Counted from the stretch's first letter, positions 40,268-62,750 are shown. The stretch: 64,000 nucleotides of DNA from Candidatus Cloacimonadota bacterium (GCA_021734835.1 JAIPIH010000004.1:30423-94422), one strand, 5' to 3'. The notes: generated from the letters alone by a model not told the origin. Made by a program: numbers and translations.

Positions 40268-40282
40268 TATCTCCTCACTTAT

Positions 40283-40795: not shown

Positions 40796-40831
40796 AAAAA
40801 AATGCTGACCTAATCATGTCAGCAAAAAAAA
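40796..40831 (-). promoter_or_regulatory. intrinsic-terminator-like hairpin in the rimP-nusA leader (minus strand)
   Basis: On the minus strand, T8 precedes TGCTGAC-ATGATTAG-GTCAGCA, which is followed by TTTTTTT. It lies 40-80 nt upstream of the rimP start, in a divergent intergenic region. Confidence 0.4.
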
Positions 40832-40993
40832 CTATGTGCTTTTTATTTACTTCATTTTCAATAAAAATTTGAGGGTTATACTGTCAAGAGTAAATTACTA
40901 TATTATTAAACATTAACACATTATTGATCTAATGCCAGTTTATAATATTTTATTAAAGATTGACAAATTGCTATTTACAATTTTTTAATTCAA

Positions 40994-44341: not shown

Positions 44342-44414
44342 TAATTTAGAATAAAAAGCTATGAATTCAGAGGTTGAAACAAACCAATTAATGTTTCACG
44401 TTAGACGATTTTTT

Positions 44415-45098
44415 TTAACTATCCCAGTTTATTTCGATGGCATAATTTATCGGATCTTTCATTCCCGCTTTCTGGAAAGCGCTGATACGTAATACACAAC
44501 TATCACATCTACCACAGGCAATATCATTATTCTTGTAACAGCTCCAGCTAAATTCCAATGGTGCTCCCAATTTAGCTCCCAGCTTTATTATCTCAGCTTT
44601 ACTCTTGTGAATGATAGGAGTTATCAGTTTTATTTTAGTTTCATCTTTAGTACCGAGGTCTATTGCTTTTTCCAAAGCAGAATAGAAACTTTCACGACAA
44701 TCGGGATATCCGGAACTATCTTCCTCCACTGCTCCGATATAGATCCTGTCAGCTTCGAGAGTCTCTGCCCAACTAGTTCCAATCGTAACGAGATGAGCGT
44801 TTCGAAAGGGCACATATGAATTGGGTACCTCTTGCGTACCATCATGATCTCTCACTTGCAGATTGTCATCCGTTAGACTTGAACCGCCAATCTCTTTTAA
44901 ATAACTAATATCTGCAACCAGGATATCTTTCGGTTTAAAATAATTGCACATTTTACGGAAAGATCTCATTTCTCTGTCTTCCGTTTTTTGGCCATAATTT
45001 AAATGCAGAAAATACAGTTCATCGCAATCTTTTTGGGCAATTGCTGCTGTAACTAAACTATCCATCCCACCACTTAAAAGTACTATTCCTTTTATCAT
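44415..45098 (-). CDS. queC: 7-cyano-7-deazaguanine synthase
   Basis: PP-loop LLSGGMDS and the C-terminal Zn cluster CGRCDSCVLR. Confidence 0.9.
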   Translation of the reverse strand: MIKGIVLLSGGMDSLVTAAIAQKDCDELYFLHLNYGQKTEDREMRSFRKMCNYFKPKDILVADISYLKEIGGSSLTDDNLQVRDHDGTQEVPNSYVPFRNAHLVTIGTSWAETLEADRIYIGAVEEDSSGYPDCRESFYSALEKAIDLGTKDETKIKLITPIIHKSKAEIIKLGAKLGAPLEFSWSCYKNNDIACGRCDSCVLRISAFQKAGMKDPINYAIEINWDS

Positions 45099-45137
45099 AG
45101 ATCTTCCTTATTTATTTATCTAAGTTACTTTTTTTAT

Positions 45138-46613: not shown

Positions 46614-46769
46614 ATCATCTCCACTATTATCAATTTACAGGAAATTATTCGATTTGAATCTGTCCATAAAAAGTACTTGAGTAGGACTAGTTTTATTTTA
46701 GCTTCTTATAATTCTTGACATTAGATTGCTAAAAACAGAGTTTAAGTTAAATCTAATTTGGAGGATACA

Positions 46770-48884
46770 ATGAAAAAGAAAATTATTTTATTGATATCAT
46801 TAATAATTATTTCGACAAGCTCCATTGCAATCGAATCAGTTGCTTATCCACTTAAGATTATGGGTAGTGTAGATCTGACCAGAAATCTTGAAAGTTCTGC
46901 TCTCAAGATTGGAGATCAGCTATATAACGGCGATGAGGTAGAAACAAAACCTGAATCTTATGCAGCAATTCAATTTCAGGATGAAAGTTCCTTGGTAAAA
47001 CTTTTCCCCAATACAATTCTCAACATTCGATCAGAAAAAGAAGGAGAAAAATATAATAAAAAAAGTTTACTTAAATTAGGTGAACTTTGGGCAAAAGTAG
47101 AAAAGGGAAGGGGTACATTTGAAATTGAAACACCTACAACTGTAGCTTCCGTTAAGGGTACAAACTTCTTATTGAACGTTGCAGAAGATGGAACTACAGA
47201 GCTGTTTACCTTTGAAGGCGAAGTACTCTTCCAAAATATTATAACCGGCGAATCCGCATCAGTTTCAGCCGGAGAGAGAGGAATCATTTCAGGCGAAGAG
47301 CCAATTAATATTATGCCAATCAATCCGGATGATATTGATGAAACGCACAGTGACTTTATCAATGAAGAATATGATTCTATCAGAGAAGAGGGTACTCCAA
47401 CTGAACCGGACGAGGAAGAATCTATACCTATATCTCCGGAAGCAGAAGAAATGCCCCAGGAAAGTGGTACAAAATCTTCTGGTGGTCCTATCAATGTGGG
47501 CGGTGGAGTTGGCACGGTTATGGTGGGCAGAGAAACTTACACACAGATCAGATTAATGCCGGAACTTGTGTTCGGAAAATTTGGTTTAGGTCTCGATATT
47601 GACCTGATGATAGACAGTAACGGCGACATCAGAAAAGAAGACTGGAATGATTTTGAGGATTATGTAAATAAAGTGTACTACTTGCGTTATGGCCAACGCG
47701 GCGACACCTTTTATGGAAGACTGGGCGGATTCAAATCCTACACTTTGGGTCATGGCTTGGTTATGAAAGACTATACAAACATGCTGCGTTACCCGGAGTA
47801 TAAACAAATAGGTATTCAACTCGGAGGAAATCTTCCCGTAGCCGGTATAACGGCTGAGTTATTTACTGCCAATGCCTTAAAAAATGAGATCCTGGGCGGT
47901 AGATTGACCATTCAACCGCTTCATAAATCGAGTATCCCGCTTTTAAATAATCTAGTATTTGGCGGAACAGTTGCCCACGACAGAAATCAAGTAAAAGGCT
48001 TGCTTGACTCTGATAATGATAACTTTCCAAATCATTTTGACGATTTCCCGTTTAATGATAGATGGCATAATCTAATTGATCGGGAGATCGATGATTATCA
48101 TGAACTATACTTCTCAACCGTGGAAAATCCTACTGAAGAAGGATTTGAAGAATGGTTTACTAATAATGAATATTTTGTGAATCGAAGGAATCCTTCATTT
48201 GCTGATTTCCAGAAAAATGCAATTACTGTAGTTGGAATTGATTATGAAATTCCCTTTATTCAAAATCCGCTCTTCACATTGAGCCATTATGGAGAAGCTG
48301 CTCAAATTTTAGATCATAAAAGAGGTTTTATCTTCCCGGGTTTTTATTCAAAATTTCTTATATTCCATATGAATCTTGAATATAGAATTTTTCAGGATGA
48401 TTTTATGCCTGCCTTTTTTGATCAATTATACGACGAACAAAGAGCGGTTGTTTACACAGATATAGACAGCGTATTAACAAAAGAATCTCTTTTAAATAAT
48501 ATCTCAAGTTCCCGTGGCTGGTATGGAAGTCTAACCACAAATATCCTGAATTTACTTTATGTTACGGTATCTTACAGTGATATGTATTACAAAGATCGGG
48601 ATAACTCACGCTCCTTATGGGGAAAAGCAAACATCAATACAAGCTTTATCCCTAAACTTACTAAAGCAGAAATTAGATATTCTCAAACCGGTTTTGATAC
48701 ATTGAATCAATTTAAATCTCCAAATGCTGTGATAAATGGTTCGCTGGGATATGCCTTGGGAGGTAGTACTCAGTTAGTTGGAACTTATCAAGAACGCTAT
48801 GTTGATCTTGATAACAACGGAAAGATCAGAGGTGAAAACGAAACTATCACTTCGATGAGCATGGGTGTGGAATTCAGATTTTAG
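46770..48884 (+). CDS. FecR-domain protein fused to a large predicted outer-membrane beta-barrel-like domain
   Basis: ATG 46770 after GGAGGA. Signal peptide, FecR-like fold (GDEVETKPESYAAIQF...TPTTVASVKGTNFLL), an acidic Pro/Glu linker, then a roughly 450-aa Gly/aromatic-rich region ending GVEFRF. Confidence 0.55.
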   Translation: MKKKIILLISLIIISTSSIAIESVAYPLKIMGSVDLTRNLESSALKIGDQLYNGDEVETKPESYAAIQFQDESSLVKLFPNTILNIRSEKEGEKYNKKSLLKLGELWAKVEKGRGTFEIETPTTVASVKGTNFLLNVAEDGTTELFTFEGEVLFQNIITGESASVSAGERGIISGEEPINIMPINPDDIDETHSDFINEEYDSIREEGTPTEPDEEESIPISPEAEEMPQESGTKSSGGPINVGGGVGTVMVGRETYTQIRLMPELVFGKFGLGLDIDLMIDSNGDIRKEDWNDFEDYVNKVYYLRYGQRGDTFYGRLGGFKSYTLGHGLVMKDYTNMLRYPEYKQIGIQLGGNLPVAGITAELFTANALKNEILGGRLTIQPLHKSSIPLLNNLVFGGTVAHDRNQVKGLLDSDNDNFPNHFDDFPFNDRWHNLIDREIDDYHELYFSTVENPTEEGFEEWFTNNEYFVNRRNPSFADFQKNAITVVGIDYEIPFIQNPLFTLSHYGEAAQILDHKRGFIFPGFYSKFLIFHMNLEYRIFQDDFMPAFFDQLYDEQRAVVYTDIDSVLTKESLLNNISSSRGWYGSLTTNILNLLYVTVSYSDMYYKDRDNSRSLWGKANINTSFIPKLTKAEIRYSQTGFDTLNQFKSPNAVINGSLGYALGGSTQLVGTYQERYVDLDNNGKIRGENETITSMSMGVEFRF

Positions 48885-48905
48885 ATCATAACCTATCCTT
48901 CGCTA

Positions 48906-49661
48906 TTGCGAGTGAAACTCCCCAGTTTGTCAGGTGATATTTTGAATAACTTAGTTGATGTTCATTGCCATTTAAGTGAAGAAAATATTTTTTCGGAAGT
49001 TCCGAAAGCGGTCAAAGCAGGAATAACTCGTTTTATCTCTTCAGCACTATGCCAGGAAGAATTTGAATGGCACATGAATACAGATCATTCTGCTATGAAA
49101 TGGTCTGCCGGAATCCATCCAAATTACAAAAAGAGTAAGGAATCAGATTTTCAAACTTTAGTAAAACTATGTGATCAGAAAAAAATAATTGCTCTTGGAG
49201 AAGTTGGTTTAGACAAACGAAACAAAGATTCCACCTGGCAAAAAGCTATTTTGCTTAAACAATTGGATCTGGCGGCAAATTATGATCTTCCGGTAATTTT
49301 TCATGTGGTACATCAATATTACGAGCTGCATAAATTGTTAAAAAATAATTTCCCTAAGATCCGGGGATTCCTGCATGCATTTAGCGCCTCCAAAGAAATA
49401 GCAGAAACTTTTTCTAAATATGATCTGGCTTTTTCAATTGGCTGTAAACACCCTAAACTGAACTGCTTGGAATATATTGCAAAACGTGGTTTTTTGTTAT
49501 TTGAAACTGATGCTCCCTATCAAAAACCACCTGACTCAAAGCAAGAAGAAAATCATCTTATTAATCTGCTCTGGAACGTGAAAACAGTCTCTAAACTACT
49601 TAAAATTCAGGTTGATGATTTGATCGAAATACAAGTTGGGAGCTATAGATCTATTTTCTAA
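48906..49661 (+). CDS. tatD: TatD family metal-dependent hydrolase
   Basis: VDVHCHL, GEVGLD, FHV, HAFS, ETDAPY. The start codon is uncertain. Confidence 0.8.
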   Translation: MRVKLPSLSGDILNNLVDVHCHLSEENIFSEVPKAVKAGITRFISSALCQEEFEWHMNTDHSAMKWSAGIHPNYKKSKESDFQTLVKLCDQKKIIALGEVGLDKRNKDSTWQKAILLKQLDLAANYDLPVIFHVVHQYYELHKLLKNNFPKIRGFLHAFSASKEIAETFSKYDLAFSIGCKHPKLNCLEYIAKRGFLLFETDAPYQKPPDSKQEENHLINLLWNVKTVSKLLKIQVDDLIEIQVGSYRSIF

Positions 49662-49681
49662 AAATTTTAAAGGAATAACAA

Positions 49682-50416
49682 ATGAACCAATTTACTCGAA
49701 CCGAAATGTTGTTTGGTAAAGAAAGTATCAAAATTTTTCAATCCAAGCGCATTGCTGTAATGGGACTTGGTGGAGTCGGTAGTTATACAGCTGAAGCACT
49801 TTCTAGAAGCGGTATTGGACATTTCTTGCTCGTTGATTTTGATAAAGTTAGTCTATCAAATTTAAATAGACAGCTGATAGCACTGTATAGCACTTTAGGT
49901 CAGCTCAAAACAGAAGTTATGAAAGAACGGATCTTAGATATCAATCCCAAAGCGAAAGTAGAGATATATTCTGATTTCTGCGCTCATGAATCGCGCGATG
50001 AATTATTGGAAAATGTGGATTTTGTAGTTGATGCAATAGACAGTCTGGGGCCAAAAGCAGGCCTGCTGGAAAGTTGTTATCGGAAAGAGATCCCCATAAT
50101 CAGTTCAATGGGAGCTGCAAACAGAATTGATCCATCCAAAATCAAATTGGTAGATATTTCTGAAACTAAGATATGTCCTTTAGCAAAAAAAGTTCGTAAA
50201 TATCTGCATCGAAGAGGAATAGAAAAAGGGATCCCAGTAGTTTATTCCTGGGAAAAACCAATCACTCAGTTTGATTACAAAGCTGAAGTAGTAGAGGAAT
50301 TGGTTACTCAAAGAGGCCGCAAACGAAGTACTTTAGGCTCTGTTGTCTATTTACCTGCTATAATGGGATTATGGGCATCAAGTTTTATTTTGCGGAAATT
50401 AGCAGATAAGATTTAA
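49682..50416 (+). CDS. tcdA: tRNA threonylcarbamoyladenosine dehydratase (ThiF/E1-like)
   Basis: Rossmann motif VMGLGGVGSYTAEALSRSGIG, NLNRQ, DAIDS; TcdA/CsdL-like length. Confidence 0.8.
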   Translation: MNQFTRTEMLFGKESIKIFQSKRIAVMGLGGVGSYTAEALSRSGIGHFLLVDFDKVSLSNLNRQLIALYSTLGQLKTEVMKERILDINPKAKVEIYSDFCAHESRDELLENVDFVVDAIDSLGPKAGLLESCYRKEIPIISSMGAANRIDPSKIKLVDISETKICPLAKKVRKYLHRRGIEKGIPVVYSWEKPITQFDYKAEVVEELVTQRGRKRSTLGSVVYLPAIMGLWASSFILRKLADKI

Positions 50417-50579
50417 CTCTTAAAATTCTGAAGAGAAGCGCCTTTGATCATTGTGTTAATCGTTTAGATACATATTTGCTTCATCATCTTCAATCACTAA
50501 TATGCGTTACATTATTTTCTCCCTCTTTGTAAAGTGGTAAAGTAACAATAAAAGTAGTTCCCTCATCAATTTTACTTGG
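50153..50579. repeat. left copy of a long direct repeat (tcdA tail + spacer + deleted RR + HK tail)
   Basis: Aligns by eye with 58361-59094: 13 substitutions, 2 one-base indels, and a 309-bp gap relative to the right copy. Confidence 0.9.
50456..50579 (-). pseudogene. relic of the response-regulator gene (both ends only) plus the last ~20 codons of the histidine kinase
   Basis: Corresponds to 58663-58677 joined to 58987-59094. The RR start region reads ATG TAA instead of ATG CAA, and one extra base sits at the HK-tail edge. Confidence 0.8.
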
Positions 50580-50639
50580 CTGATAATCTTGCTATTCATA
50601 GGAGTTTCTCCAGATTCTTGGGCAGGGCTGAGTCCAAAC

Positions 50640-50917
50640 CACTAACTTTTGTCACTAAGATAAGAAGAGAAACTAACTGAGAAATAAACACCATATCATT
50701 CTGATTAGTGTTAAGGATACAATTTCTGGTAGTACCAAGCTGGTTCCACACAGCAAGCATCTGATAAACGAAAGTGCCCTACTCGTACTGATTGGTCATA
50801 ATGAAGATCTGGAAAGTTAATTTTTTTAAATTGTAAATCCTTTTCATCCTTTTAGATATATCTACGATTTGATGGAAGATTTATATCAAGAATCAGCACA
50901 ATTGAAATAAGTTTTGC
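50640..50917 (-). pseudogene. decayed receiver-domain (response-regulator) fragment
   Basis: Hand translation of the minus strand gives ...AKLISIVLILDINLP, a frameshift, then VDISKRMKRIYNLKKLTFQIFIMTNQYE*. This is the DxxLP / K-R-hK / hhhT pattern of a CheY-like receiver, broken by stops and frameshifts. No ORF of 60 aa or more exists here. Confidence 0.4.
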
Positions 50918-50945
50918 TTGACATTTGGAGATTTTCCTACATATT
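50918..50945 (+). promoter_or_regulatory. possible sigma70-type promoter of the efflux operon
   Basis: TTGACA (50918-50923), a 16-nt spacer, then CATATT (50940-50945). AGGAG RBS at 50954-50958 and ATG at 50968. Confidence 0.3.
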
Positions 50946-50967
50946 GTCCTATCAGGAGAAAAAAATA

Positions 50968-51432
50968 ATGAGAATATATAAAAGATTAAACTTTATCCTT
51001 GCACTGATTCTGTTGTCAGTCAGCATATTTGCATTTAATCAGCATAATTGTTGCTGCGATATGGAGATGGATGAAGTTTCTTTATCTAAAACAAACTGTA
51101 ATGCAGAAGCTGAATTTAGTGCAAATGCTAAATTTAGTGCTGGTGATTATTCACAAGATAATTGCTTTGGTAATTACTCGTTTGTGAATAATCAATATCT
51201 TCAATGCAAGCAGTTTTTTGTTTTAGATTTTTCTACAGAAGTAGAAATTGCAATGCTCCGCAGTGATAAGCTTGTTTCTTTCTTTTCTGCTTTTTATTTA
51301 GAAGAGAACTTAACAGAGCCTAATCTTTGTGAAAAATTTTATTATCTCTCCTCAAGAACAAATCACAATTACAATTCATACTACTTAGCGGAAAACTTAT
51401 CCGATAGAGCGCCTCCAGTTTTATTTGTTTAA
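50968..51432 (+). CDS. secreted Cys/Met/His-rich protein of unknown function (putative metal-binding)
   Basis: ATG 50968 after AGGAG is preferred over the ORF-track TTG at 50914. Signal/anchor LNFILALILLSVSIFA is followed directly by NQHNCCCDMEMDE. Four further Cys residues and a C-terminal RAPPVLFV. Confidence 0.6.
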   Translation: MRIYKRLNFILALILLSVSIFAFNQHNCCCDMEMDEVSLSKTNCNAEAEFSANAKFSAGDYSQDNCFGNYSFVNNQYLQCKQFFVLDFSTEVEIAMLRSDKLVSFFSAFYLEENLTEPNLCEKFYYLSSRTNHNYNSYYLAENLSDRAPPVLFV

Positions 51433-51470
51433 AATCACAAACAATAACAAATAAAATAATCGGAGGAAAA

Positions 51471-51908
51471 ATGAAAAAAATCATTTTTATAGCACTATTG
51501 TGCTTATTGGTAAGCTATACGCTTATCGCAGAAGAAAGCAAAGTTTGTCATTCAGATATGAATATGGAAAAAGCTGAGAAAATCCAAGAAACATGCCCAG
51601 TTATGGGAAATCCTATAAATAAAGAGATTTACACAGAATATAAAGGGGAAAAAGTTTATTTCTGCTGTGAAGCTTGTATCAATATATTCAATAATAATCC
51701 CGGGAAATATCTAGAAAAAATGCAAGAGTCTCAAGTTGAGGAAGCTTTGGAATTCAAGCAGACTAAATGCCCCGTGATGGGAATGGAGATAGTTCCGGAG
51801 ATTAATATAGAGTATAAAGGCGAAAAAATATATTTTTGCTGTCCTTCTTGTATAGAAACTTTCAAAGCTAATCCTGAGAAGCACTTAGAGCAATTGAACA
51901 AGAAATAA
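51471..51908 (+). CDS. secreted protein with two tandem YHS/TRASH-type metal-binding domains
   Basis: GGAGG RBS. Signal peptide IALLCLLVSYTLIA, then CHSDMNME. Two repeats follow: CPVMGNPINKEIYTEYKGEKVYFCCEACINIFNNNPGKYLE and CPVMGMEIVPEINIEYKGEKIYFCCPSCIETFKANPEKHLE. Confidence 0.75.
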   Translation: MKKIIFIALLCLLVSYTLIAEESKVCHSDMNMEKAEKIQETCPVMGNPINKEIYTEYKGEKVYFCCEACINIFNNNPGKYLEKMQESQVEEALEFKQTKCPVMGMEIVPEINIEYKGEKIYFCCPSCIETFKANPEKHLEQLNKK

Positions 51909-51929
51909 GAAAGCTAATCAGGATCTTGC

Positions 51930-51983
51930 GCATAAGTTAAGCAGAAAACAATTGGAAAAAATTGTTAATCTGAAACTTATGCG
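51930..51983. repeat. nested inverted repeat (stem-loop) between the YHS gene and the OMF gene
   Basis: Outer arms CGCATAAGTT (51930-51939) and AACTTATGCG (51974-51983). Inner arms AACAATT (51948-51954) and AATTGTT (51960-51966). Confidence 0.6.
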
Positions 51984-52010
51984 TGCCTGGTTACATTATA
52001 GGGAGGACCT

Positions 52011-53201
52011 ATGCAAAAACTAAGAATTACATTGATTCTCATGGCTTTTGTTTCTTCAATCTATTCGATTTCTTTAGATGAGCTAATGAAACTGACCCAA
52101 AGTGATAATCTTCTTATACAGAAAGAAATAATAGAGAAAGAACAAAAATCCGCTGAGATCGAATCCATAAAATGGCTGAAAAATCCAATGCTGAGTTTTG
52201 GAATAATGGAAAACATGTCTTCGCAGCAAATTACGCAGGCTATAGCATTCCCCACCAAAACTTATTGGGCCAAAAAAGCGAAAGAAAAAGCTCTTTCAAA
52301 GTCACAAACTAAAGTGGACTTGATTCAACAAGATGTTGAAATGAAATTATCCTTGCTTTATTACAACCTGGCATTTATTGAAAAGAAAATTGATTTGCAA
52401 TCAGAAAAATTAGCCTATCTGAAAACTCTGGAAGCGGTAGTAGAGCAAAAGTATATTCATGGTAAAACATCGCAGCATCACTTAATTGAATTGAAAATGA
52501 AAACCTTGATTCTGCAAGATAAATTGAATTCTCTAGAGCATAAAGATCGTTACAATTTGCAACTGCAAATAAATGAAATAGTCGATAATAAGCTCGATTT
52601 AAGTGATATCAAAACTGAAAAGAGTCCCCGAAAGAGGATTTCTGATTTTACAGACTTGTATGCAGAGAGTTTAAAGAACTATCCTTTATTGATCCTGAAG
52701 CAGCAAAACATCGAGCAAGGGGAAATCTTACTGCAAAAAGAAAAGCAAAGCTTTTGGCCGGATTTGTCTCTGGGAATTACAAGAGAAAATAATAAAATGC
52801 TGAAGGAAACTAGTTATTCTTTTATGTTCGGGTTCAGCCTGCCATTACAAATCAAGGCCAACAAAGCGGCGATTAATTCTAAGAGAAATAGCTTGGAACA
52901 AGCTAAATTGGAAAGAACAATATCCGAAAATCAAGTTAAACTTATGCTGCAGAAATTGCAACGCGAATATGAAGATCTGGAAGATAAATTGGATCTGTTT
53001 GAAAATCAGGTTATACCTTTGGCCAAGCAGATTAGAAAATTGGCTGCCACTTCTTACCAGAACGAAACCATCGACTTCAAAACTTATATAACTACTATAA
53101 ATGACCTAATTGATAAAAAGTTAGAATACTATAAGTTTGAGAAACAATTTAATCAAAAAATAGTAGAAATCACTAACTTAACCCAAAGTGAGGAAAAATA
53201 A
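52011..53201 (+). CDS. TolC/CusC-family outer membrane efflux protein
   Basis: GGGAGG RBS. Signal peptide, a two-fold coiled-coil/beta repeat architecture, and its position ahead of the adaptor and RND pump. Confidence 0.75.
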   Translation: MQKLRITLILMAFVSSIYSISLDELMKLTQSDNLLIQKEIIEKEQKSAEIESIKWLKNPMLSFGIMENMSSQQITQAIAFPTKTYWAKKAKEKALSKSQTKVDLIQQDVEMKLSLLYYNLAFIEKKIDLQSEKLAYLKTLEAVVEQKYIHGKTSQHHLIELKMKTLILQDKLNSLEHKDRYNLQLQINEIVDNKLDLSDIKTEKSPRKRISDFTDLYAESLKNYPLLILKQQNIEQGEILLQKEKQSFWPDLSLGITRENNKMLKETSYSFMFGFSLPLQIKANKAAINSKRNSLEQAKLERTISENQVKLMLQKLQREYEDLEDKLDLFENQVIPLAKQIRKLAATSYQNETIDFKTYITTINDLIDKKLEYYKFEKQFNQKIVEITNLTQSEEK

Positions 53202-54620
53202 ATGAAAAAATATAGATTAGCTGCTCTTCTAACCCTTGTCTTACTTTCGTTGGTTATTATCAGTTGTGATAGTAACCCAAAAGCTGCGAGCGTAGAGGAT
53301 GAGCATGATAACAATGAATTGGTAGTAGTAGAAGAAAACGGTGTAAAATATTGGACTTGTGGAATGCATCCTTCTGTCAAAATTTCCGTAGAAGCTTATG
53401 AAAACGGTGAAACAAAATGTCCTATCTGTGTGATGGATTTAGTTCCTGTGCAAGAAAACCGAAATTCAGATAGCGAGAATATTTCATTGAATGTCTCCGA
53501 ATTGGAAAGAAAAATTGCCAATGTGAAGACAGAAGAGATTGCATATTTGCCTCTGTACAAAGAGATTACAACGGTTGGGGACATCGAGTTCAATGAAAAG
53601 AAAGTAGAATCGATTACCGCAAGATTCCCCGGCAGAGTAGAAAAGATGTTTGTAGATTTTACCGGACAAAAAGTACATCAAGGTGAACCACTGCTGGAAA
53701 TCTATTCACCCAAACTGATCGCTGCTCAGGAAGAGCTGCTGTCGGCCATAGAAACCGATAAGATTCTACAAGACAGATCAAACAACAACCTAGTCCAAGC
53801 AGCTGAAAAAAAATTGAGACTCTGGGGTATTACTACAAAGCAGATTGACTTTTTAAAAGAGCATAAGAAGATTGAAGATAAATTCGTCATTTATGCTCAG
53901 CAATCAGGAACTGTTATTAAGAAAAATATCAATCAGGGAGATTATATCAAAACCGGCAGTAAGCTCTTCACAATAGCTGATTTGAGAAGTTTATGGGTAA
54001 TGGCTGAGATCTATGATTATGAGATGAATTTAGTTAGCATGAATCAAGAAGTGAACATCTCTTCTCAAGCTTATCCCAGTAAAATTTTTAAAGGAGATAT
54101 CTCATTTATCGAGCCGGTTGTGAATCCCAAGACTCAAACTGTTAGAATTAGGATAGAACTGGATAATTCCCAAGAGAAGTTTCGTCCCGGAATGTCCGTA
54201 AATGCTGATATAATAAGCTATTTTGGAAAAGAAGATGAATTTTATTATGGCTGTCCGATGCATACACATATTCACCAATCTGAACCGGGATTATGTGAAG
54301 AGTGCGGCGGAATGAAATTGGTTAAAACTCCTGGAAATCTTGTTGCTGCAATTCCGGCTACTGCAGTTATTGATGTTGGTCGCCAGAAATTAGCTTATGT
54401 GGATAAGGGAAATGGTAATTATGAAAGAAGAATAATTGAAGTAGGAAGCGAAGCCTATTTCAAAACAGACAATGTAGTAGTAAAATATTATGAATTGATC
54501 AGCGGCTTGATGGTAGGCGAGAGTGTTGTTAGCAATTCAAGTTTCCTTTTTGATTCTCAAACACAATTATCTGGAGCTGCTGCGGGTGCATATGGCGGTT
54601 CTTTACATGAAGAAGATTAA
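53202..54620 (+). CDS. cusB: efflux RND periplasmic adaptor (CusB-like) with two heavy-metal-binding zinc-ribbon-like modules
   Basis: Lipobox IISC. YWTCGMHPSV...CPICVMDLVP (nt 53349-53450) and YYGCPMHTHIHQSEPGLCEECGGMKLV (nt 54240-54326). Has an HlyD/barrel-sandwich core (GEPLLEIYSPKL, GMSVNADI). Confidence 0.85.
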   Translation: MKKYRLAALLTLVLLSLVIISCDSNPKAASVEDEHDNNELVVVEENGVKYWTCGMHPSVKISVEAYENGETKCPICVMDLVPVQENRNSDSENISLNVSELERKIANVKTEEIAYLPLYKEITTVGDIEFNEKKVESITARFPGRVEKMFVDFTGQKVHQGEPLLEIYSPKLIAAQEELLSAIETDKILQDRSNNNLVQAAEKKLRLWGITTKQIDFLKEHKKIEDKFVIYAQQSGTVIKKNINQGDYIKTGSKLFTIADLRSLWVMAEIYDYEMNLVSMNQEVNISSQAYPSKIFKGDISFIEPVVNPKTQTVRIRIELDNSQEKFRPGMSVNADIISYFGKEDEFYYGCPMHTHIHQSEPGLCEECGGMKLVKTPGNLVAAIPATAVIDVGRQKLAYVDKGNGNYERRIIEVGSEAYFKTDNVVVKYYELISGLMVGESVVSNSSFLFDSQTQLSGAAAGAYGGSLHEED

Positions 54621-54632
54621 GGGAGGTCGATT

Positions 54633-57600
54633 ATGATAAAGCGCAATATTAACTACTGGATGCACAATCGCTTCTTAACTATCTTCATTGTCTTGCTAAT
54701 CTCTTTCATCGGTTATTTAGCTATGAAGAATACTCCGATGGATGCTATTCCCAATATTGGTGAAAATCAAGTAATCGTTTATGCAAATTGGGCGGGGAGA
54801 AGCCCCAAAGATATAGAAGACCAAGTAACCTATCCGCTGACTATAGATTTAATGGGCTTACCGAATGTTAAGGATGTTCGTTCTGCCTCAAAATTCGGGC
54901 TTTCCATGATCTATATCATTTTTGAAGATGGTGTGGATTTCTATTGGGCAAGAACTCGCATTCTGGAAAAATTGGACCAAGCTAAGCAAAATTTACCGGA
55001 AGGTGTGGTGCCTGTCTTAGGTCCGGATGGAACAGGACTGGGGCAAATTTATTGGTACACTGTGGAAAACGGATATTATTGTCCGGAACATCCTAAAATA
55101 AGATATGAAAAGTCGGGAGAATGCTCTGAAGACGGAACAGAGCTTATTCAATCTAACTATAATCTACAAGAACTTCGAGCTTTGCAAGATTGGGATATAA
55201 AATATCAACTATCAGCGGTGCAAGATGTCGCGGAAGTTGCATCAGTTGGCGGTTTCATCAAGCAATATCAAATTGATGTGAATCCAAATAAACTTCTGAC
55301 TTATGACCTCTCAATCAACCAGGTGGTAAAAGCTGTAAAGCAAAGTAACCTGGATGTGGGAGCAAAAGTAATAGAAGAAGGCGATCTGGAATTTATTGTG
55401 CGTGGTATCGGCTTCCTCAAAGAAATTCAAGATATTGAAGAGATTGTTCTGAAAAGTATGAATGGTACCCCTGTATATCTGAAAAACATTGCTTCGGTTA
55501 CTACCGGTCCCGAATTTCGGCGTGGAGCTCTCGATAAAGAGGGCGCTGATGCCACCGGCGGAATGGTTCTAATGCGCTACGGCTCAAATCCACTCAAGGT
55601 TATTCGGGAGCTCAAGACTAAAATCATTGAGATAGAAAAAGGCCTTCCCGCAGGTGTGAAAATAGTTTCCTTTTATGATAGAACCGAGTTAATCGAACGC
55701 TCGATCGGTACACTGAAAAGTACTCTACTTTGGCAGATAATTATTACTATCGTAGTAATTATGATTTTCCTTCTTCATTTTAGGACCAGTTTGATTATCT
55801 CTTTAGTTCTTCCGCTGGGTATTTTGATTACATTTATTTTTATGTACATATTCAAAGTGGAAGCAAATATCATGTCGTTAGGTGGAATAGCAATAGCGGT
55901 AGGAGTGATGGTCGATGCCGGAATTGTTCTTACCGAAAATATTTACCGTTCCTTACTGGAAGAGGGAAAGAAAAAACAACGCAACCTGACTAATAAAGAA
56001 AGGTTGGAAGTTTGTAAAGCAGGTGCAAAAGAAGTAGCTGGATCGATAGTTGCTGCCATCTTGACCACAATTGTTTCTTTCTTACCTGTATTTACCTTGC
56101 CGGGACAATCCGGGAGATTATTCCGACCTTTGGCTTTTACCAAAACTTTCACTATGATCGGGGCTACCATTATCGTTACTTCTTTGGTTCCGGTTTTGAG
56201 TTATTACCTGCTCAGGGGAAAACTAAAACCTGTCGAAAAGAATTTTACTTCTAGTGCTATCAAGAGGATTTATCAACCTTTGTTGAAATTCTCACTTAAA
56301 TATAAAGCGGTTGTAATTGTTCTCTGTCTTGCGCTTTTTTCTTATGGAATTTTTGTTTCAACTAAGATCAATAAAGAATTTATGCCGCCTTTGGACGAAG
56401 GACATTTATTATTCATGCCGGTAACTTTACCAGGAGTTTCCCTAACGAAAGTTAATGAAATTATGAAAAAGCAAGATATCATCCTGAAAAGCTTTCCGGA
56501 AGTTGAACAAGTTGTCGGAAAGTTGGGAAGAGCAGAATCTGCAACCGATCCTGCTCCGGTCAGTATGATTGAGACTATCGTCGACCTTAAACCCAAGTCT
56601 GAATGGCGAGCTGGTATGACGAAAAAGAAATTGATCTCGGAGATGAATCAAGCTCTTAAAATTCCAGGAGTAAGTAATATTTGGACTCAGCCGATCAGGA
56701 ATAGGATCGATATGCTCTCAACAGGAATCCAAACTCCGGTTGGTATCAAAGTTTTTGGCGATGATATCAAGAAAATTCAAGAAGTTGCAATCCAGATTGA
56801 AACGGAAATTGGCAAAATTCCAAGTGTGACAAATGTCTATGCTGAAAGAATTGGGAGCAGACCTTATATCGAGATTATTCCCGATAGAAGAGAGCTGGCT
56901 CGCTATGGAATAAAGATGCAAGAAGTTCAAAGCCTGATTATGACAGGAATTGGCGGGATGAATATCTCGACAATGCTGAAGGGAAGAGAACGCTATCCGA
57001 TTCGAGTTCGTTTTCAAAAAGATTCCCGTGATGATATCAGTTCTCTGAAGCGGCTTCCCGTGCAGACTGCTTCCGGCCGACAAATTCCTTTAGCTCAAAT
57101 TGCTGAGATAAAAAAGAAGCCCGGACCTGCGATGATTGCCGGAGAAAATACTCAGACTTACTCTCGTGTCTTTATCAATACAGATCCTGATCAAATCGGT
57201 GTTGTTGATTTTGTGGAACAAGCAAAACAAATGATAAATCAAAAGATTGCAAACGGTGAGATTCAGATTCCTGCTGGCTACTTCATTGAATGGTCGGGAC
57301 AATATGAAGCGGAGGTAGAAGCTTCCCAAAGGTTGAAACTCGTAGTTCCAATCGTGCTTTTGATTATATTGGTTATCTTGTTCGTAACCTTCCGCTCGTT
57401 TTCTTCTATGTTGGTGGTAACTACCGGATTGCCAGTCGCCATGATTGGAGGAATTATTCTCCTATATTTTATGGATTTAAAAATGAGTGTTGCTGTCTGG
57501 GTAGGTTTTATTGCTCTGATGGGAATTGCCACCGATAATGCAGTTGTATTTGTCAAAACTTTGGACAACCTTTTTCGTAAAAGAAAAATTGAAAAAGCAA

Positions 57601-57860
57601 GCCAGATCAACAGCTTAATTATCGAAGGGGGTCTGCTCAGAATTAGACCTATCATTATGACAACTGTCACGACAATTCTAGCTTTAGTTCCAATAATGCT
57701 TAGCAGCGGTACTGGATCGGAAGTGATGAAGCCGATGGCAATTCCAACCATCGGTGGATTGTTTACCGTTACATTAACAAATACTTTGCTGGTTCCGATT
57801 TTGTATGCTTATGCCAAGAAATTTGAATTTAGAAAAAGTTTTAAAGCGAATGTAAATTAA
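54633..57860 (+). CDS. cusA: CusA-type (monovalent Cu/Ag) heavy-metal efflux RND pump
   Basis: 12-TM RND architecture. The TM4 motif GGIAIAVGVMVDAGIVLTEN resembles E. coli CusA rather than the CzcA DFG..DGA..VEN motif (from memory). Met residues in LLFMPVTLPG, APVSMIETI and RIDMLSTG line up with the CusA three-Met Cu(I) site. Confidence 0.9.
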   Translation: MIKRNINYWMHNRFLTIFIVLLISFIGYLAMKNTPMDAIPNIGENQVIVYANWAGRSPKDIEDQVTYPLTIDLMGLPNVKDVRSASKFGLSMIYIIFEDGVDFYWARTRILEKLDQAKQNLPEGVVPVLGPDGTGLGQIYWYTVENGYYCPEHPKIRYEKSGECSEDGTELIQSNYNLQELRALQDWDIKYQLSAVQDVAEVASVGGFIKQYQIDVNPNKLLTYDLSINQVVKAVKQSNLDVGAKVIEEGDLEFIVRGIGFLKEIQDIEEIVLKSMNGTPVYLKNIASVTTGPEFRRGALDKEGADATGGMVLMRYGSNPLKVIRELKTKIIEIEKGLPAGVKIVSFYDRTELIERSIGTLKSTLLWQIIITIVVIMIFLLHFRTSLIISLVLPLGILITFIFMYIFKVEANIMSLGGIAIAVGVMVDAGIVLTENIYRSLLEEGKKKQRNLTNKERLEVCKAGAKEVAGSIVAAILTTIVSFLPVFTLPGQSGRLFRPLAFTKTFTMIGATIIVTSLVPVLSYYLLRGKLKPVEKNFTSSAIKRIYQPLLKFSLKYKAVVIVLCLALFSYGIFVSTKINKEFMPPLDEGHLLFMPVTLPGVSLTKVNEIMKKQDIILKSFPEVEQVVGKLGRAESATDPAPVSMIETIVDLKPKSEWRAGMTKKKLISEMNQALKIPGVSNIWTQPIRNRIDMLSTGIQTPVGIKVFGDDIKKIQEVAIQIETEIGKIPSVTNVYAERIGSRPYIEIIPDRRELARYGIKMQEVQSLIMTGIGGMNISTMLKGRERYPIRVRFQKDSRDDISSLKRLPVQTASGRQIPLAQIAEIKKKPGPAMIAGENTQTYSRVFINTDPDQIGVVDFVEQAKQMINQKIANGEIQIPAGYFIEWSGQYEAEVEASQRLKLVVPIVLLIILVILFVTFRSFSSMLVVTTGLPVAMIGGIILLYFMDLKMSVAVWVGFIALMGIATDNAVVFVKTLDNLFRKRKIEKASQINSLIIEGGLLRIRPIIMTTVTTILALVPIMLSSGTGSEVMKPMAIPTIGGLFTVTLTNTLLVPILYAYAKKFEFRKSFKANVN

Positions 57861-57884
57861 GCATTCACGTCAAAATATCGATCA

Positions 57885-57920
57885 ATCAGGCTTTCGCAGC
57901 GACGAAAGCCTGATTTTTTA
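57885..57920 (+). terminator. rho-independent terminator of the efflux operon
   Basis: ATCAGGCTTTCG (57885-57896), CAGCGA loop, CGAAAGCCTGAT (57903-57914), then TTTTTT. Confidence 0.85.
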
Positions 57921-58012
57921 TTGCTAGGAACAACCTATCACTTTTCCCTCTTTCCCAGTTCACTTCATTTCGGGGTTCGTTGAAAATTCTTCTCTTTTCC
58001 TTCTTTCTTCTT

Positions 58013-58041
58013 ACTTTTTACTTTTTACTTTTTGCTTTTTT
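58013..58041. repeat. short tandem repeat (ACTTTTT)x3 + GCTTTTTT inside a pyrimidine-rich noncoding tract
   Basis: Read directly: ACTTTTTACTTTTTACTTTTTGCTTTTTT. The surrounding 57990-58055 is almost pure C/T on the plus strand. Confidence 0.6.
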
Positions 58042-58054
58042 CTTCTGCCTTCTA

Positions 58055-58345
58055 CTATTTCACCAACATCATTTTCTGGCGCACTAGGCTTTGCCCGTCT
58101 ACTTGCAATTGGTAGAGATAGACGCCGCTGGCGACAGCTTAGCCATTCTCATTCCGACCGTTCCAGGTAATTGTGTGTTGGCCGGCAGGCTGCTGCTGAC
58201 GAGCAGCATATTAATTTTCTACCCTTTTAGATTGTAGATAGTGATCTCAGCTTCGCTTGCCTGGGGCAGAGCATGATTGATAGTGGTACTGGCAACACGT
58301 CTCTGCGCAGAGGGCGCGAAAGGTGTGGGGGGGTAGTTGGTGTGC
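58055..58345 (-). pseudogene. relic of a T9SS C-terminal sorting domain (body of the gene missing)
   Basis: Minus strand reads NYPPTPF...TTINHALPQASEAEITIYNLKG*KINMLLVSSSLPANTQLP, a frameshift, then WNGRNENG*AVASGVYLYQLQVDGQSLVRQKMMLVK*. It has two in-frame stops and one frameshift, and is about 53 % GC by hand count. Confidence 0.7.
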
Positions 58346-58360
58346 ATGGGTTGCAAATCC

Positions 58361-58623
58361 GATATTTCTGAAACTAAGATATGTCCTTTAGCAAAAAAGT
58401 TCGTAAATATCTGCATCGAAGAGGAATCGAAAAAGGGATCCCAGTAGTTTATTCCTGGGAAAAACCTATCACTCAGTTTGAGTACAAAGCTGAAGTGGTA
58501 GAAGAATTGGTTACCCAAAGAGGCCGCAAACGAAGTACTTTAGGCTCTGTTGTCTATTTACCTGCTATAATGGGATTATGGGCATCTAGTTTTATTTTGC
58601 GGAAATTATCAGATAAGATTTAA
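58361..58623 (+). pseudogene. duplicated 3' fragment of tcdA (last ~87 codons, frameshifted)
   Basis: Matches 50153-50416 with 8 substitutions, and A6 instead of A7 at 58393-58398. It has no 5' part of the gene and no RBS. Confidence 0.85.
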
Positions 58624-58662
58624 CTCTTAAAATTCTGAAGAGAAGCGCTTTTGATCATTATG

Positions 58663-59028
58663 TTAATCGTTTAGATATTTTTCGAGTTCTTTGATAAATA
58701 GTTCTGGCTTGATCGATTTTTCCATATAGCCTGTACAACCTGCATTTAGAGCTTTCTCTCGATCTCCCGCCATGGCATAGGAAGTCAGTGCGATAATCTT
58801 CAAATCCCTTCCTTTCTTATCCTGCCGGATTTTTCTTGTTGCATCAAATCCATTTATGTCGGGTAATTGCACGTCCATTATCACTAAATCGGGCTGTTCT
58901 TGCAAAGCAAGCTTGACACCACTGAGACCATCCTGAGCAACAATCACCTGAAAGCCGTGTTTTTCCAGAATGAACCTGTTCAGATACATATTTGCTTCGT
59001 CATCTTCAATCACTAATATGCGTTGCAT
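58663..59028 (-). CDS. single-domain (CheY-like) response regulator
   Basis: ATG at 59028 (MQRILVIEDDEANMY). Phospho-acceptor context DLVIMDVQLPDINGFD, plus LTSYA and KSIKP. No output domain. Confidence 0.85.
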   Translation of the reverse strand: MQRILVIEDDEANMYLNRFILEKHGFQVIVAQDGLSGVKLALQEQPDLVIMDVQLPDINGFDATRKIRQDKKGRDLKIIALTSYAMAGDREKALNAGCTGYMEKSIKPELFIKELEKYLND

Positions 59029-61177
59029 TATTTTCTTCCTCTTTGTAAAGTGGTAAAGTAACAATAAAAGTAGTTCCCTCATCAATTTTACTGGATACGG
59101 TGATCCTGCCTTTTAATAATTCTAAAATTTTTTGGGTAAGATGCAGTCCCAGACCGGTTCCCTCATATTTCTTTGTTAAAGTAGAATCTATCTGTTGAAA
59201 AGGTTCGAAGAGCTTGCCAACATCCTTTTCTTTGATACCTATACCAGTATCCGATACCATGATTTTAAGCCAATTTCCCTGTTCAACTTCAGAGCTGATC
59301 GTAACACTACCCTGCTCAGTGAATTTAACGGCATTGCTCAATAAATTCAAGATGATTTGTGTAAATCTTCTTCTATCGCTAAACTGTTCTATTATACCGG
59401 CAAAATTGAAATCTAATGTAATCCCTTTCTCACTCGCTTTGGGCTGGATGGATTTTACCAATTCGCTTATAACTTCATTCACTTCGAATCTTTCCCGTGT
59501 CAATTCAACTTTACCTGCTTCGACCTTGGAAATATCAAGAATATCATTGATCAGATCAAGTAGGTGGTGAGCACTTTTTTTGACGATATTCAACTGTTTA
59601 CGCTGTTCATCAGTTAGATCACACACCATACCCATCAGAAGTATTCCTGTGAAACCAATTATAGAATTCAGCGGCGTTCGTAATTCATGACTCATACTTG
59701 CTAGAAAGATTGATTTTAGCCTATCAGCTTCTTTCAGATTTACATTGGCAACATTCAGTTCCTGTGTCCTCTTCTGCAGTTCTTTAGTTCGTATTTCCAC
59801 CAGATTTTCCAAATGTTTTCGATGGAGTTCCAATTGTCGCTCTACTTTCATTCGATCATCAATATCAAGAATAACGCCATGCCAGCGGCGGTTGCCATTC
59901 GCTTGGAGTTTAACTCTGCCAATGGAACGAAACCATTTGATCTTATCTTCATTCAATTTTACCCGATATTCGACATCCATTACATCGTTATCAGTTTCGA
60001 TCTTATCTGATTCTTCCTGCAGCCTTTGCCTATCTTCTGGCAGGATGTATTCAAAAAAGTTGTTAATATCAAATTTTGTTAACTTGCCGACTTCAGCACC
60101 CAGAAATTCTTCGCTTCGATTTGTTTGAATCAAAGGCACGCGTTTCCCTTGTGGATCAATGTCATACATAAAAACCAGCCCCGGGATATTCTCTACAAAG
60201 CTGCGATAAAACTCACGGCTTTCTTCCAACAGTTTCAATGTCTGCTGATGTTCCGAGATTTCCTCTAAAAGGTCAGCATTAGATTGCTGCAATAATCTGG
60301 TTCTATTTTTGAACTGCCATCTCAAGATGAGGGAAGCTATGAGAAAAATTATTATTAAAATAATGAGAAAAATGATTAGCGGCCAAAGCCAATCCGGCAA
60401 GCTCTTTTTGGGATAAAGATCATACTTTTTTAAAATTGTATAATAGATCGAGTCGATTTCATTTTGCCACTCAGTCAGATATGAATCTATCTTTTCGCAT
60501 AGTTCACTGTTGATAACAGCATTCTTCGGAAAAGCATATCTCAATGCAGTGGGATAGAAAATAAAATTATTCTGATGAAGTCCGAATTGCTTTTCAAAGG
60601 CACTGCCAAAAAACCGATTAACTATACCGACATCTGCTTCGCCGGTTTCCACCAGACTAAAAACTTCGTTGTAATCGTCAGTTTCCTGAAAAAGACATTC
60701 AATTCCGTAACGCTCTGCCAGGTTATAAATTCCATTCTGACCTGTAGTAAGAATGCTGCTTCTCATCACTGCCACAGTTTTTCCCTTCAAATCCAGCACT
60801 GAATTGATCTCGGGATGGGATTTCGTGTAGAAACAGCCCCAACTAGTGAGTACAGTTCGCTGATGAAAATCATAGATCTTCTCCCTGGCCACTGAAACAG
60901 CCACATCAGGCATAATATCGATATCCCCGCTCTTTAGATGCTGTAAACATTCTTCCCAAGTTCCGAAGATATATTCCAGCTGCCAGTTCTCATGTTTTGC
61001 AATTTCCTCAAGAAGCTCAGGAAAAATACCTCCAGCTTCTCCGTGTTCGGTTTGATAAATTTTAGGATAATTATTGTATAAACCTACTTTTAACGTAAAA
61101 TTTATCTGCTTTGAGAAAAGAGAAGTGGACAAGATCAATATCAGCAAAAATAAAACAGGCTTCAGTTTGTTACTCAC
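59006..61177 (-). CDS. sensor histidine kinase with periplasmic SBP_bac_3-type sensor, PAS, HisKA and HATPase domains
   Basis: GTG 61177 after GAAGGAG is preferred over the ORF-track start at 61201. Periplasmic GIFPELLEEIAKHENWQLEYIFGTWEECLQHLKSGDIDIM, TM2, PAS, H-box SHELRTPLNSIIGF, DTGIGI and GTGLGL. Confidence 0.85.
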   Translation of the reverse strand: MSNKLKPVLFLLILILSTSLFSKQINFTLKVGLYNNYPKIYQTEHGEAGGIFPELLEEIAKHENWQLEYIFGTWEECLQHLKSGDIDIMPDVAVSVAREKIYDFHQRTVLTSWGCFYTKSHPEINSVLDLKGKTVAVMRSSILTTGQNGIYNLAERYGIECLFQETDDYNEVFSLVETGEADVGIVNRFFGSAFEKQFGLHQNNFIFYPTALRYAFPKNAVINSELCEKIDSYLTEWQNEIDSIYYTILKKYDLYPKKSLPDWLWPLIIFLIILIIIFLIASLILRWQFKNRTRLLQQSNADLLEEISEHQQTLKLLEESREFYRSFVENIPGLVFMYDIDPQGKRVPLIQTNRSEEFLGAEVGKLTKFDINNFFEYILPEDRQRLQEESDKIETDNDVMDVEYRVKLNEDKIKWFRSIGRVKLQANGNRRWHGVILDIDDRMKVERQLELHRKHLENLVEIRTKELQKRTQELNVANVNLKEADRLKSIFLASMSHELRTPLNSIIGFTGILLMGMVCDLTDEQRKQLNIVKKSAHHLLDLINDILDISKVEAGKVELTRERFEVNEVISELVKSIQPKASEKGITLDFNFAGIIEQFSDRRRFTQIILNLLSNAVKFTEQGSVTISSEVEQGNWLKIMVSDTGIGIKEKDVGKLFEPFQQIDSTLTKKYEGTGLGLHLTQKILELLKGRITVSSKIDEGTTFIVTLPLYKEEENNATHISD

Positions 61178-61425
61178 TTTCGCTCCTTCTGAATATATCA
61201 AGTCACTGTTATTATCACCTAATAAACATTCACTAGTTTGTTTTTAAAAATAATTTCAGTCAAGTTCATTTATTCGAAGAAATAATGATCATCAATAAAT
61301 ATTATAAATCAGCTGTTTGGATGTTTTAGTTAGCAACTCACTATCAAATTGAAGTGAAACAATGCCTGTTACTAAATGGAAATGAAGTAAGTTCGGACTG
61401 ATTGACTATTGAAAGAAATTTTAGT

Positions 61426-62517
61426 TTACTTCAGATCATAATTAATTGAGTCTCCAGTATCGAGATCAAAATAATGCGCAAATTCCATTTTGAAAGAAAC
61501 TGATATATTTTCTCCCGGTTTCGTAAAAATTCTTTCTTCTTCACGCAGCAAAAATTTATTATCTTCAATAGCACAAAAGAAAATGATCTCGTTGCCCATC
61601 GGTTCAACAACTTCCACCAGAGCTTTGGTTTTTGCCGCTTTTTCGATCTTGATGTTCTCGGGGCGAATGCCCATCAGTACTTCTTTACCCAGATGATTCT
61701 TCAATTTATCATGAAACTGTTTAGGAACCGTCAACATAATTCCTGGTGCTGAAAACTGGATCCCATCTTTTTTCTCCAATTTTCCTTTTATGAAGTTCAT
61801 GGACGGACTGCCGATGAAACCGGCAACGAACATGTTTTTGGGATGATCATAAAGATTGAGAGGTGTATCCACCTGTTGAATTAAACCTTCATGCAAAACA
61901 GCAATTCTATCACCCATGGTCATGGCTTCTACCTGATCATGAGTCACGTAGATAATAGTTGTATTCAGTCTTTTATGCAGTTTGCTGATCTCAGCGCGCA
62001 TCTGCACTCTCAATTTAGCATCTAAATTGGAAAGAGGTTCATCAAAGAGGAAAACCTTGGGATGACGAACAATGGCTCTGCCTAATGCAACACGCTGCCT
62101 TTGACCTCCCGAAAGCGCTTTCGGTTTGCGCTCCAGCAATTCTTCTAAACCCAGGATCTCAGCTGCTTCTCCCACCATCTTTTTGATCTCGGTTTTAGGA
62201 AGTTTGCGCAGCTTGAGTCCGTAAGCCATGTTATTAAAAACCGTCATGTGCGGATAAAGTGCATAATTTTGAAATACCATGGCAATATCACGATCTTTGG
62301 GTTGGACATTGTTTACAACTTTACCGTCGATGTAGATCTTACCGGATGTAATCTCCTCTAATCCTGCTATCATACGTAAGGTAGTTGATTTGCCGCAACC
62401 GGAAGGTCCTACTAAAACCATAAATTCTTTATCAGCTATTATCAGATCGTTGTCTTTGACAACATGAACTTTGCCATCATAAATTTTATTCACTTTTTCC
62501 AGAACTACTTTAGCCAT
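61426..62517 (-). CDS. sugar ABC transporter ATP-binding protein (MalK/UgpC/MsiK type)
   Basis: Walker [10 protein letters not shown], signature [14 protein letters not shown], Walker [12 protein letters not shown], and a C-terminal regulatory/TOBE-like domain. Confidence 0.85.
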
Positions 62518-62750
62518 TTATTCCTCCAAGAATATTTGATGCATTCTATTCTTCGCTATATCCTGAAAGACATCGGGACATTCAGGATGACAGTTTACTG
62601 AAATTTTTCACACTAATTTGTTCGGAATTCCTCCTGGATTTCAAAACCAAACTTATCGAAGTATCGCCCTTTATTTCAAAATTATAACTTAAACTGGCGA
62701 AAGTCAAAACCAGTATGAAGTTCTAAAACCTACGCAAGGATGTAATCATT

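Follow-up and report, generated by a model that had tools for sequence, protein, structure and literature searches.

Campbell-type insertion-duplication is familiar from laboratory suicide plasmids and circularised fragments. We describe here a locus of similar layout in a 64,000-nucleotide stretch of DNA from Candidatus Cloacimonadota bacterium (GCA_021734835.1, JAIPIH010000004.1:30423-94422; hereafter the window, with positions counted from its first letter). At this locus, a 7.8-kb insert (50577-58360) that holds a five-gene Cu(I)/Ag(I) efflux operon (genes 50968-57860) lies between two diverged direct copies of a segment made up of the tail of tcdA, a response-regulator (RR) gene and the tail of a histidine-kinase (HK) gene. 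Two natural islands invite comparison. The recA mobile element (RME) of Vibrio cholerae carries genes for a phage integrase and XerS and has 9-bp inverted repeats, and homologous recombination has been shown to be unable to explain its insertions (PMC4405046). For the E. coli microcin H47 island, short repeats and RecA-independent deletions are described (PMC3191183, PMC5426353). The Cloacimonadota locus differs from both, and we favour for it, at a probability of about one half (0.52), the Campbell-type integration, in one crossover, of a homeologous circle that came from a sister lineage.

Repeat finding, MAFFT and global alignment place the direct copies at 50153-50576 (left) and 58361-59092 (right), within 2-3 nt of the ends given by an initial annotation made from the sequence alone (50153-50579 and 58361-59094). 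Thirteen substitutions and one 1-nt indel separate the copies, a deletion has taken 309 bp from the left one, and global alignment gives 96.7% identity across the 424 alignable nt. The initial annotation had arrived at the same substitutions and the same deletion; of the two one-base indels that it counted, one was found, an A8 run in the left copy (at 50185) against an A7 run in the right. A difference between the copies occurs roughly once per 30 nt, and no identical run exceeds 71 nt; runs of 55 nt and 71 nt are among the stretches common to both, and a perfect identity of 38 nt lies at their left edges (50153-50190 = 58361-58398). The homology of the two segments, from which that annotation started, is borne out by MAFFT, by global alignment and by self-BLAST of the window. 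Beyond all four repeat edges no homology was found, the flanking local alignments being at shuffle level (z≤1.5), and self-BLAST of the whole window (E≤1e-10) detects no second repeat pair of about 100 nt or more within the 64 kb.

The repeated segment starts with the 3'-terminal 264 nt of tcdA; a 45-nt spacer follows, then the RR gene and the 3'-terminal 87 nt of HK, a reading already proposed that matches the gene annotation. Homology therefore runs about 160 nt past the end of tcdA, via the spacer into the convergent RR and HK genes. Translations of both copies confirm that each gene is intact only once, tcdA on the left and RR and HK on the right. The sole intact tcdA (49682-50416, plus strand) is identified by Pfam ThiF (7e-39) and by the NCBIfam TcdA model as top match, and a 100% match to its product in NCBI (P0121) carries the name tRNA threonylcarbamoyladenosine dehydratase. 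Its counterpart on the right, a truncated tail (58361-58623, plus strand), is not intact because the A7 run causes a frameshift. Conversely, the RR on the right (58663-59028, minus strand; Pfam Response_reg 7e-26) is an intact receiver-only protein, and the left RR is not intact because codon Q2 has become a stop and an in-frame 309-bp deletion, bounded by AGATA microhomologies, has removed most of the gene. What is left is a pseudogene remnant of 19 codons (50456-50512, minus strand) that reads M*RILVIEDDEANMYLND*. The left copy also has an orphan 87-nt HK 3' tail (50490-50576, minus strand) with two non-synonymous differences from the functional HK copy, which is intact at 59006-61201 (minus strand) with the Pfam domains SBP_bac_3, PAS, HisKA and HATPase_c. 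A GLGL-like motif, seen by eye beyond the left junction, was considered as a continuation of the HK remnant and rejected, as it has no Pfam match at E≤10 and alignment past the boundary is no better than with shuffles.

The differences between the copies point to a history in working genes. The tcdA tails are separated by eight substitutions, six of them synonymous and two conservative (D198E and A241S), which corresponds to a dN/dS of 0.09-0.13 at a dS of about 0.1; the probability of at least six synonymous changes in eight under neutrality is 0.002-0.009. Because the substitutions are biased towards synonymous changes, a pattern that in-place decay would not yield, the tails diverged as functional genes in two separate genomes, under purifying selection for most of the divergence. 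The suggestion in the initial annotation that a homeologous copy was involved thus gains support from the tail comparison (dN/dS ~0.1). D198 and A241 are near-universal in 15 outgroup TcdA sequences, and the truncated right tail therefore carries the derived states, E198 and S241, which is consistent with slight extra decay after truncation. Across the three parts of the segment, divergence amounts to 3.0%, 4.4% and 2.6%. Such a uniform level of about 3% is expected if a resident and a donor allele recombined reciprocally, wherever the crossover fell.

From the coincident sharp boundaries of the copies, the presence of each gene intact once and the pattern of divergence, we infer that the simplest history is a single crossover between a resident tcdA-RR-HK locus and a circle from a sister lineage. 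The resident locus would at the start have read tcdA followed by the convergent RR and HK genes, both on the opposite strand. The donor circle, diverged by about 3%, would have carried the Cus-type operon, a fragment of a sorting-domain gene and a slice of about 0.4-0.7 kb made up of the tcdA tail, RR and the HK tail. One RecA-type crossover would then have joined the circle to the homologous slice of the resident, leaving a 7.8-kb insert between direct, reciprocally recombinant copies of the slice, with each interrupted gene intact exactly once. A circle with a defined homologous segment predicts boundaries that coincide sharply in both copies, as is seen here. Later decay would have brought the A-run frameshift and the E198 and S241 changes to the right tcdA tail, and to the left RR the Q2 stop and the microhomology-mediated loss of 309 bp. 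Through RecA, recombination between the flanking repeats could also delete the cassette or amplify it in tandem.

As the window is part of a metagenome-assembled genome, in which it lies on a 163-kb contig, the junctions were compared with an independent assembly, the Logan k=31 assembly of run SRR12088349 (for which a literature search gave no result), and both novel junctions are present in its contigs. One of these (L001, 7,844 bp) is 100% identical to window 50547-58390. For a second, of 57 kb (L063), the retrieved terminal 15,045 bp match window 35138-50182 at 100% identity, and the contig stops at 50182. Each contig end consists of exactly the 30 nt common to the other repeat copy. Between the repeats the cassette forms one unbranched unitig, and therefore every cassette-bearing molecule in the sample has the segment on both sides. 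The concern that the layout is a chimera of strain variants is reduced by the junction-bearing contigs and the single unitig; in one respect it stands, since k=31 cannot separate a chromosomal cassette from a circular one.

It is on this ambiguity that an assembly artefact would turn, in which a chromosome with tcdA, one copy of the segment and HK was merged through the shared sequence with a separate 8.2-8.5-kb circle or with a second strain. In the k=31 graph both shared nodes have two edges in and two out and the Logan contigs end there, and the window stems from a metagenome-assembled genome. Against mis-threading, the longest identical run is 71 nt, so that reads of at least 100 nt can phase the copies, and reads of 100-150 nt or a k of at least 73 would do so directly. 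The circle, moreover, would be without a replication gene, and no further duplication of the strain type was found in the 64 kb. Of the possible phasings, the assembled one alone leaves both tcdA and the RR-HK pair intact; the others give a frameshifted chromosomal tcdA or a chromosomal HK with a dead RR. We therefore regard mis-threading as quite improbable. Irrespective of this locus, diverged repeats of this kind interrupt a k=31 assembly precisely where the cassette meets its flanks; cassette and chromosome then fall into separate contigs, and binning of such data may lose or misplace the resistance operon.

The right-hand junction (58360/58361) brings up a different history. Here the tcdA tail meets the pseudogene of a sorting-domain protein, made up of its last ~100 codons and ending exactly at 58360. 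If a unit from mid-tcdA to the sorting-domain gene had been duplicated in place, by tandem duplication or unequal sister-chromatid exchange, this junction of unit end to unit start would formally be its novel joint. Tandem duplications are common, and microhomology-mediated deletion, as at the AGATA sites, has clearly happened here. Such a history would need the first unit to lose the HK body, the second to lose the cassette, and the functional tcdA tail to be overwritten later by a sister-strain allele, in all at least four further events. Duplicates, furthermore, begin identical, yet the copies show a uniform divergence of about 3% over functional and dead parts alike, biased towards synonymous changes in tcdA. 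Nor were cassette genes found to the right of HK within the window, and the cassette is single-copy in the window and a single Logan unitig, so the sample holds no second copy in other flanks. We consider in-place duplication unlikely, and integration of a homeologous circle remains the reading that we favour.

The locus offers little that would assign it to a class of mobile element. Pfam scans of the open reading frames in 45138-63998, and the annotation of the Logan contig for a further 15 kb to the left, contain no integrase, recombinase or transposase. No replication gene is found within about 15 kb to the left or about 5 kb to the right, and the 64 kb contain no tRNA or tmRNA gene. Comparisons of the cassette ends, which stay at shuffle level, reveal neither direct nor inverted terminal repeats, and the repeats that do flank the insert (424 and 732 bp) are unlike short att cores. 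The initial annotation had likewise reported no integrase, transposase, tRNA or terminal inverted repeats, and the Pfam scans, the tRNA search and the end comparisons agree with it. Because the defining features of each class were looked for and not found, the locus is not a classical island, an integrative and conjugative or mobilisable element (ICE/IME), a prophage or a composite transposon bounded by insertion sequences.

One could still see in it the remnant of a site-specific integrative element, akin to a cis-mobilisable element (CIME), that brought its own substitute for the 3' end of tcdA, entered the 3' part of the gene at a 38-nt core, and whose integrase was lost or acted in trans. 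An intact target gene on one side with a displaced 3' fragment on the other is indeed the classic signature of insertion into the 3' end of a gene, and the perfect 38-nt identity lies at the left edge of both copies. An attP mimic, on the other hand, has no need of homology that reaches ~160 nt past tcdA into RR and HK, and neither an integrase or its remnant, in insert or flanks, nor a tRNA was detected. We judge a CIME-like origin to be very improbable.

The right-hand part of the insert may carry traces of an earlier context. At its edge lies the decayed C-terminal sorting domain (58055-58360, minus strand), of the type IX secretion system (T9SS)/FlgD type and marked by two nonsense mutations and at least one frameshift. 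Its GC content of 0.516 compares with 0.358 for the genome and 0.306 for a paralogue within the window (21282-21569), and its top database matches are T9SS-domain proteins of Cloacimonetes at just 44% identity. By its GC content the fragment is foreign to this genome, and it would fit passenger DNA that the insert brought from an earlier context. A 26-nt sequence resembling the tcdA tail (57917-57942, plus strand) directly follows the terminator of the operon, and a CT-rich tract separates it from the sorting-domain pseudogene. It matches 58448-58473 at 23 of 26 positions and 50241-50266 at 22 of 26, and is closest to the tcdA of its own lineage, not to the alleles of relatives. Locally the match outscored all of 2000 shuffles; in a blastn search of the whole window its E-value is only 0.013, which is marginal. 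This relic may be the leftover of an earlier junction between cassette and tcdA.

The left edge (50577-50913), 337 nt without a recognisable gene remnant, is blank in tblastx and Pfam searches and shows no HK homology past the junction. A csoR remnant was considered here, as the nearest relative has CsoR upstream, and was rejected, tblastn being blank both in the edge and in the window. The gene wreckage that had been proposed for both edges is thus present at the right edge, in the sorting-domain pseudogene, and not at the left. In composition the cassette itself resembles the host, with a GC content of 0.370 against 0.358 for the genome and a tetranucleotide distance at the 88th percentile, and the idea that it is compositionally foreign is not supported.

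Taken further, such traces could belong to a recombinase-free mobile unit anchored by homology, which had captured a slice of the core genome (tcdA tail, RR and HK tail) as a portable integration site. Such a unit would enter, leave and amplify in tandem in related Cloacimonadota chromosomes through host RecA alone, and previous integrations would have left the 26-nt relic and the GC-rich passenger fragment behind. We put this forward as a speculative and rather improbable reading.

Comparison with relatives indicates that the 3' flank of tcdA had been rearranged before the segment was duplicated. The upstream order NFACT-FecR-TatD-TcdA is kept in 14 Cloacimonadota genomes, and in none of the 14 do RR, HK or cus genes occur in the 10 kb that follow tcdA. 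In the closer relatives, represented by eight loci, tcdA is followed at 0-5.5 kb by a conserved set of four to five convergent genes on the minus strand. Nothing equivalent to this set exists in the 64-kb window, and the rearrangement at the 3' end of tcdA in this lineage therefore predates the duplication. The 3' flank of tcdA is thus a synteny break across the phylum and, in this lineage, a point of rearrangement.

Database searches place both the resident gene and the pump at some distance from known sequences. A scan of GTDB genomes returned TcdA relatives at no more than 78% identity, and a search of 5.8 billion proteins returned nothing between 100% and the next match at 79%; apart from this genome the species is thus unsampled, and neither it nor a sister species has another genome or contig in the collections searched. 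The best CusA match has 62% identity, and most of the named matches among the 120 listed come from Omnitrophica, Aminicenantes and WOR-1 rather than from Cloacimonadota. In JGI metagenomes CusA matches reach at most 35%; IMG/VR has none, and plasmids give only short matches of 65-68% to RND-pump genes. Exact-protein look-ups of TcdA, HK, TatD, the MalK-like protein and RR returned no match, as expected for TcdA and HK because the Logan contigs break inside both genes.

Several observations weigh against integration of a circle from a sister lineage. The selection test rests on just eight substitutions, and phasing through the identical runs of 55 nt and 71 nt rests on the assembler. Since the cassette genes are host-like in composition, they are not necessarily recent imports. 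The relic at 57917-57942, the third tcdA-like sequence at the locus, hints at a more complicated history, and the donor circle requires an extra illegitimate joint, between the T9SS fragment and mid-tcdA. Finally, neither an empty site nor a donor genome, neither an excised circle nor the cassette in another context was found in the collections searched, where the nearest TcdA stands at 79% and the nearest CusA at 62%.

Family, promoter and terminator scans agree with the earlier description of the operon within the insert as a self-contained set of five genes with a promoter-like site and a strong terminator. A sigma-70-like promoter candidate (50918-50947, plus strand), with TTGACA, a 16/18-nt spacer and CATATT/TATTGT, has 10 of 12 consensus matches and the top score of the region, and is a consensus match only; at the other end stands an intrinsic terminator (57884-57915, plus strand; terminator scan) with a 13-bp stem and a T-run. 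The family scans detect no metal sensor within the insert, and tblastn finds no csoR-like sequence in the whole window, which extends the earlier statement that the cassette encodes no metal-sensing regulator. The operon of the nearest relative starts with a CsoR-type gene. Because a sensor is not encoded inside it, expression of the operon probably starts at the promoter that it carries itself.

All five genes lie on the plus strand. The first, orf154 (50968-51432), encodes a predicted membrane-anchored or secreted Cys-rich protein (CCCDMEMDE) that belongs to no Pfam or NCBIfam family. An AGGAG Shine-Dalgarno sequence with ATG at 50968 fits its start better than the mechanical TTG at 50914, and the Logan gene call also begins at 50968. 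The protein opens with an N-terminal hydrophobic anchor, followed by NQHNCCCDMEMDE. The second gene (51471-51908) encodes a secreted protein with two YHS/TRASH metal-binding domains (2xYHS; Pfam YHS 6e-20, in two stretches). Pfam and NCBIfam scans find neither CusF nor CusRS in the operon, and the 2xYHS protein and orf154 occupy their place; orf154 could be a new periplasmic copper-binding protein that, together with the 2xYHS protein, replaces CusF.

The remaining three genes encode the parts of a tripartite pump. A TolC/CusC-like outer-membrane factor (52011-53201; Pfam OEP 1.5e-23) is followed by a CusB-like periplasmic adaptor with a heavy-metal-binding domain (53202-54620; HlyD_D23 3.5e-74, HMBD 2e-10). 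For the adaptor, the CusB model of NCBIfam is the top match yet stays below its cut-off (123 vs 390 bits), so that the match holds at the family level only. The adaptor has one Pfam HMBD match at residues 348-375, and a second, similar motif in its N-terminal part was seen by eye only. The CusA-type heavy-metal-efflux RND pump (54633-57860) scores 1053 bits with TIGR00914 against a cut-off of 701, and E. coli CusA is its best match in the PDB (1e-253, with ZneA at 3e-160). The residues M573, M623 and M672 of E. coli CusA are kept in the pump alignment (LLFMPVT, VSMIET and RIDMLSTG). The TIGR00914 score, the match to E. coli CusA and this methionine triad all speak for the Cu(I)/Ag(I) assignment made earlier. 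In transmembrane helix 4 (TM4), the translation contains the motif A-x5-D-x6-E (AVGVMVDAGIVLTEN), which we take, from the HME-RND literature, to be of the monovalent-metal type. HMBD motifs of the YxCPxHP type are inserted in the periplasmic part of the pump at residues ~148-172, where E. coli CusA is gapped. Taken together, the CusA, CusB and outer-membrane components are predicted to export Cu(I)/Ag(I) from periplasm and cytoplasm, aided by the two secreted metal-binding proteins.

Around the repeats, family scans identify TatD (48906-49661, plus strand) upstream of tcdA and, beyond HK, a MalK-like ATPase (61426-62517, minus strand) and an alpha-amylase (62751-63998, minus strand). The intact RR is a stand-alone receiver without an output domain, and its start overlaps the 3' end of HK by 23 nt. 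HK, with its periplasmic SBP_bac_3 domain, adjoins the MalK-like and alpha-amylase genes. This setting suggests that the RR-HK pair is a nutrient-sensing rather than a metal-sensing system, and control of the efflux cassette by RR-HK is therefore unlikely.

If the single-crossover history is true, the locus would provide a clean natural example of the gain of a metal-resistance operon without mobile-element machinery. Homologous recombination with the DNA of a close relative would suffice for the gain, and the structure could be lost or amplified in the same way. Digesters and landfills, in which metals favour tolerant organisms, commonly harbour the lineage, which is uncultured (bioRxiv 10.1101/2021.10.08.463351).

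How does the locus compare with described systems? Like the V. cholerae RME, it has an island that interrupts a core gene, an intact version of which is retained beside the insert; unlike the RME, the tcdA locus has no integrase, no XerS and no 9-bp inverted repeats. The microcin H47 island of E. coli (PMC3191183, PMC5426353) is likewise small, without a site-specific recombinase of its own and bounded by direct repeats; unlike those short repeats, the ones described here consist of hundreds of bp of core-genome sequence. The locus also resembles RecA-dependent units that can be amplified or deleted, in that its resistance-type operon is flanked by direct repeats, 420-730 bp long, which share identical runs of up to 71 nt, although with 3% divergence and a 309-bp gap the rate would be lower. 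The operon is similar to E. coli CusCFBA (CusA structures 3K07 and 3T51) in its CusA-family pump with M573/M623/M672 and the TM4 motif, joined in one operon by a CusB-like adaptor and an outer-membrane factor. It departs from CusCFBA in the absence of CusF and CusRS, in the presence of the 2xYHS protein and orf154, and in the extra HMBD motifs in CusA and CusB.

The closest likeness is to Campbell-type merodiploids, in which the direct repeats around the insert are the homologous segment of the incoming circle and the interrupted genes are intact once, and which arise through RecA without a dedicated recombinase and are reversible by recombination between the repeats. Unlike the laboratory cases, the present one is natural and comes from an uncultured phylum, its repeats are homeologous (3%), its donor circle is deduced from the layout, and 309 bp have been lost from one repeat. 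The locus is thus most likely a new, well-preserved example of a known mechanism, and its pump adds a member to a known transporter family; it is not a new kind of element.

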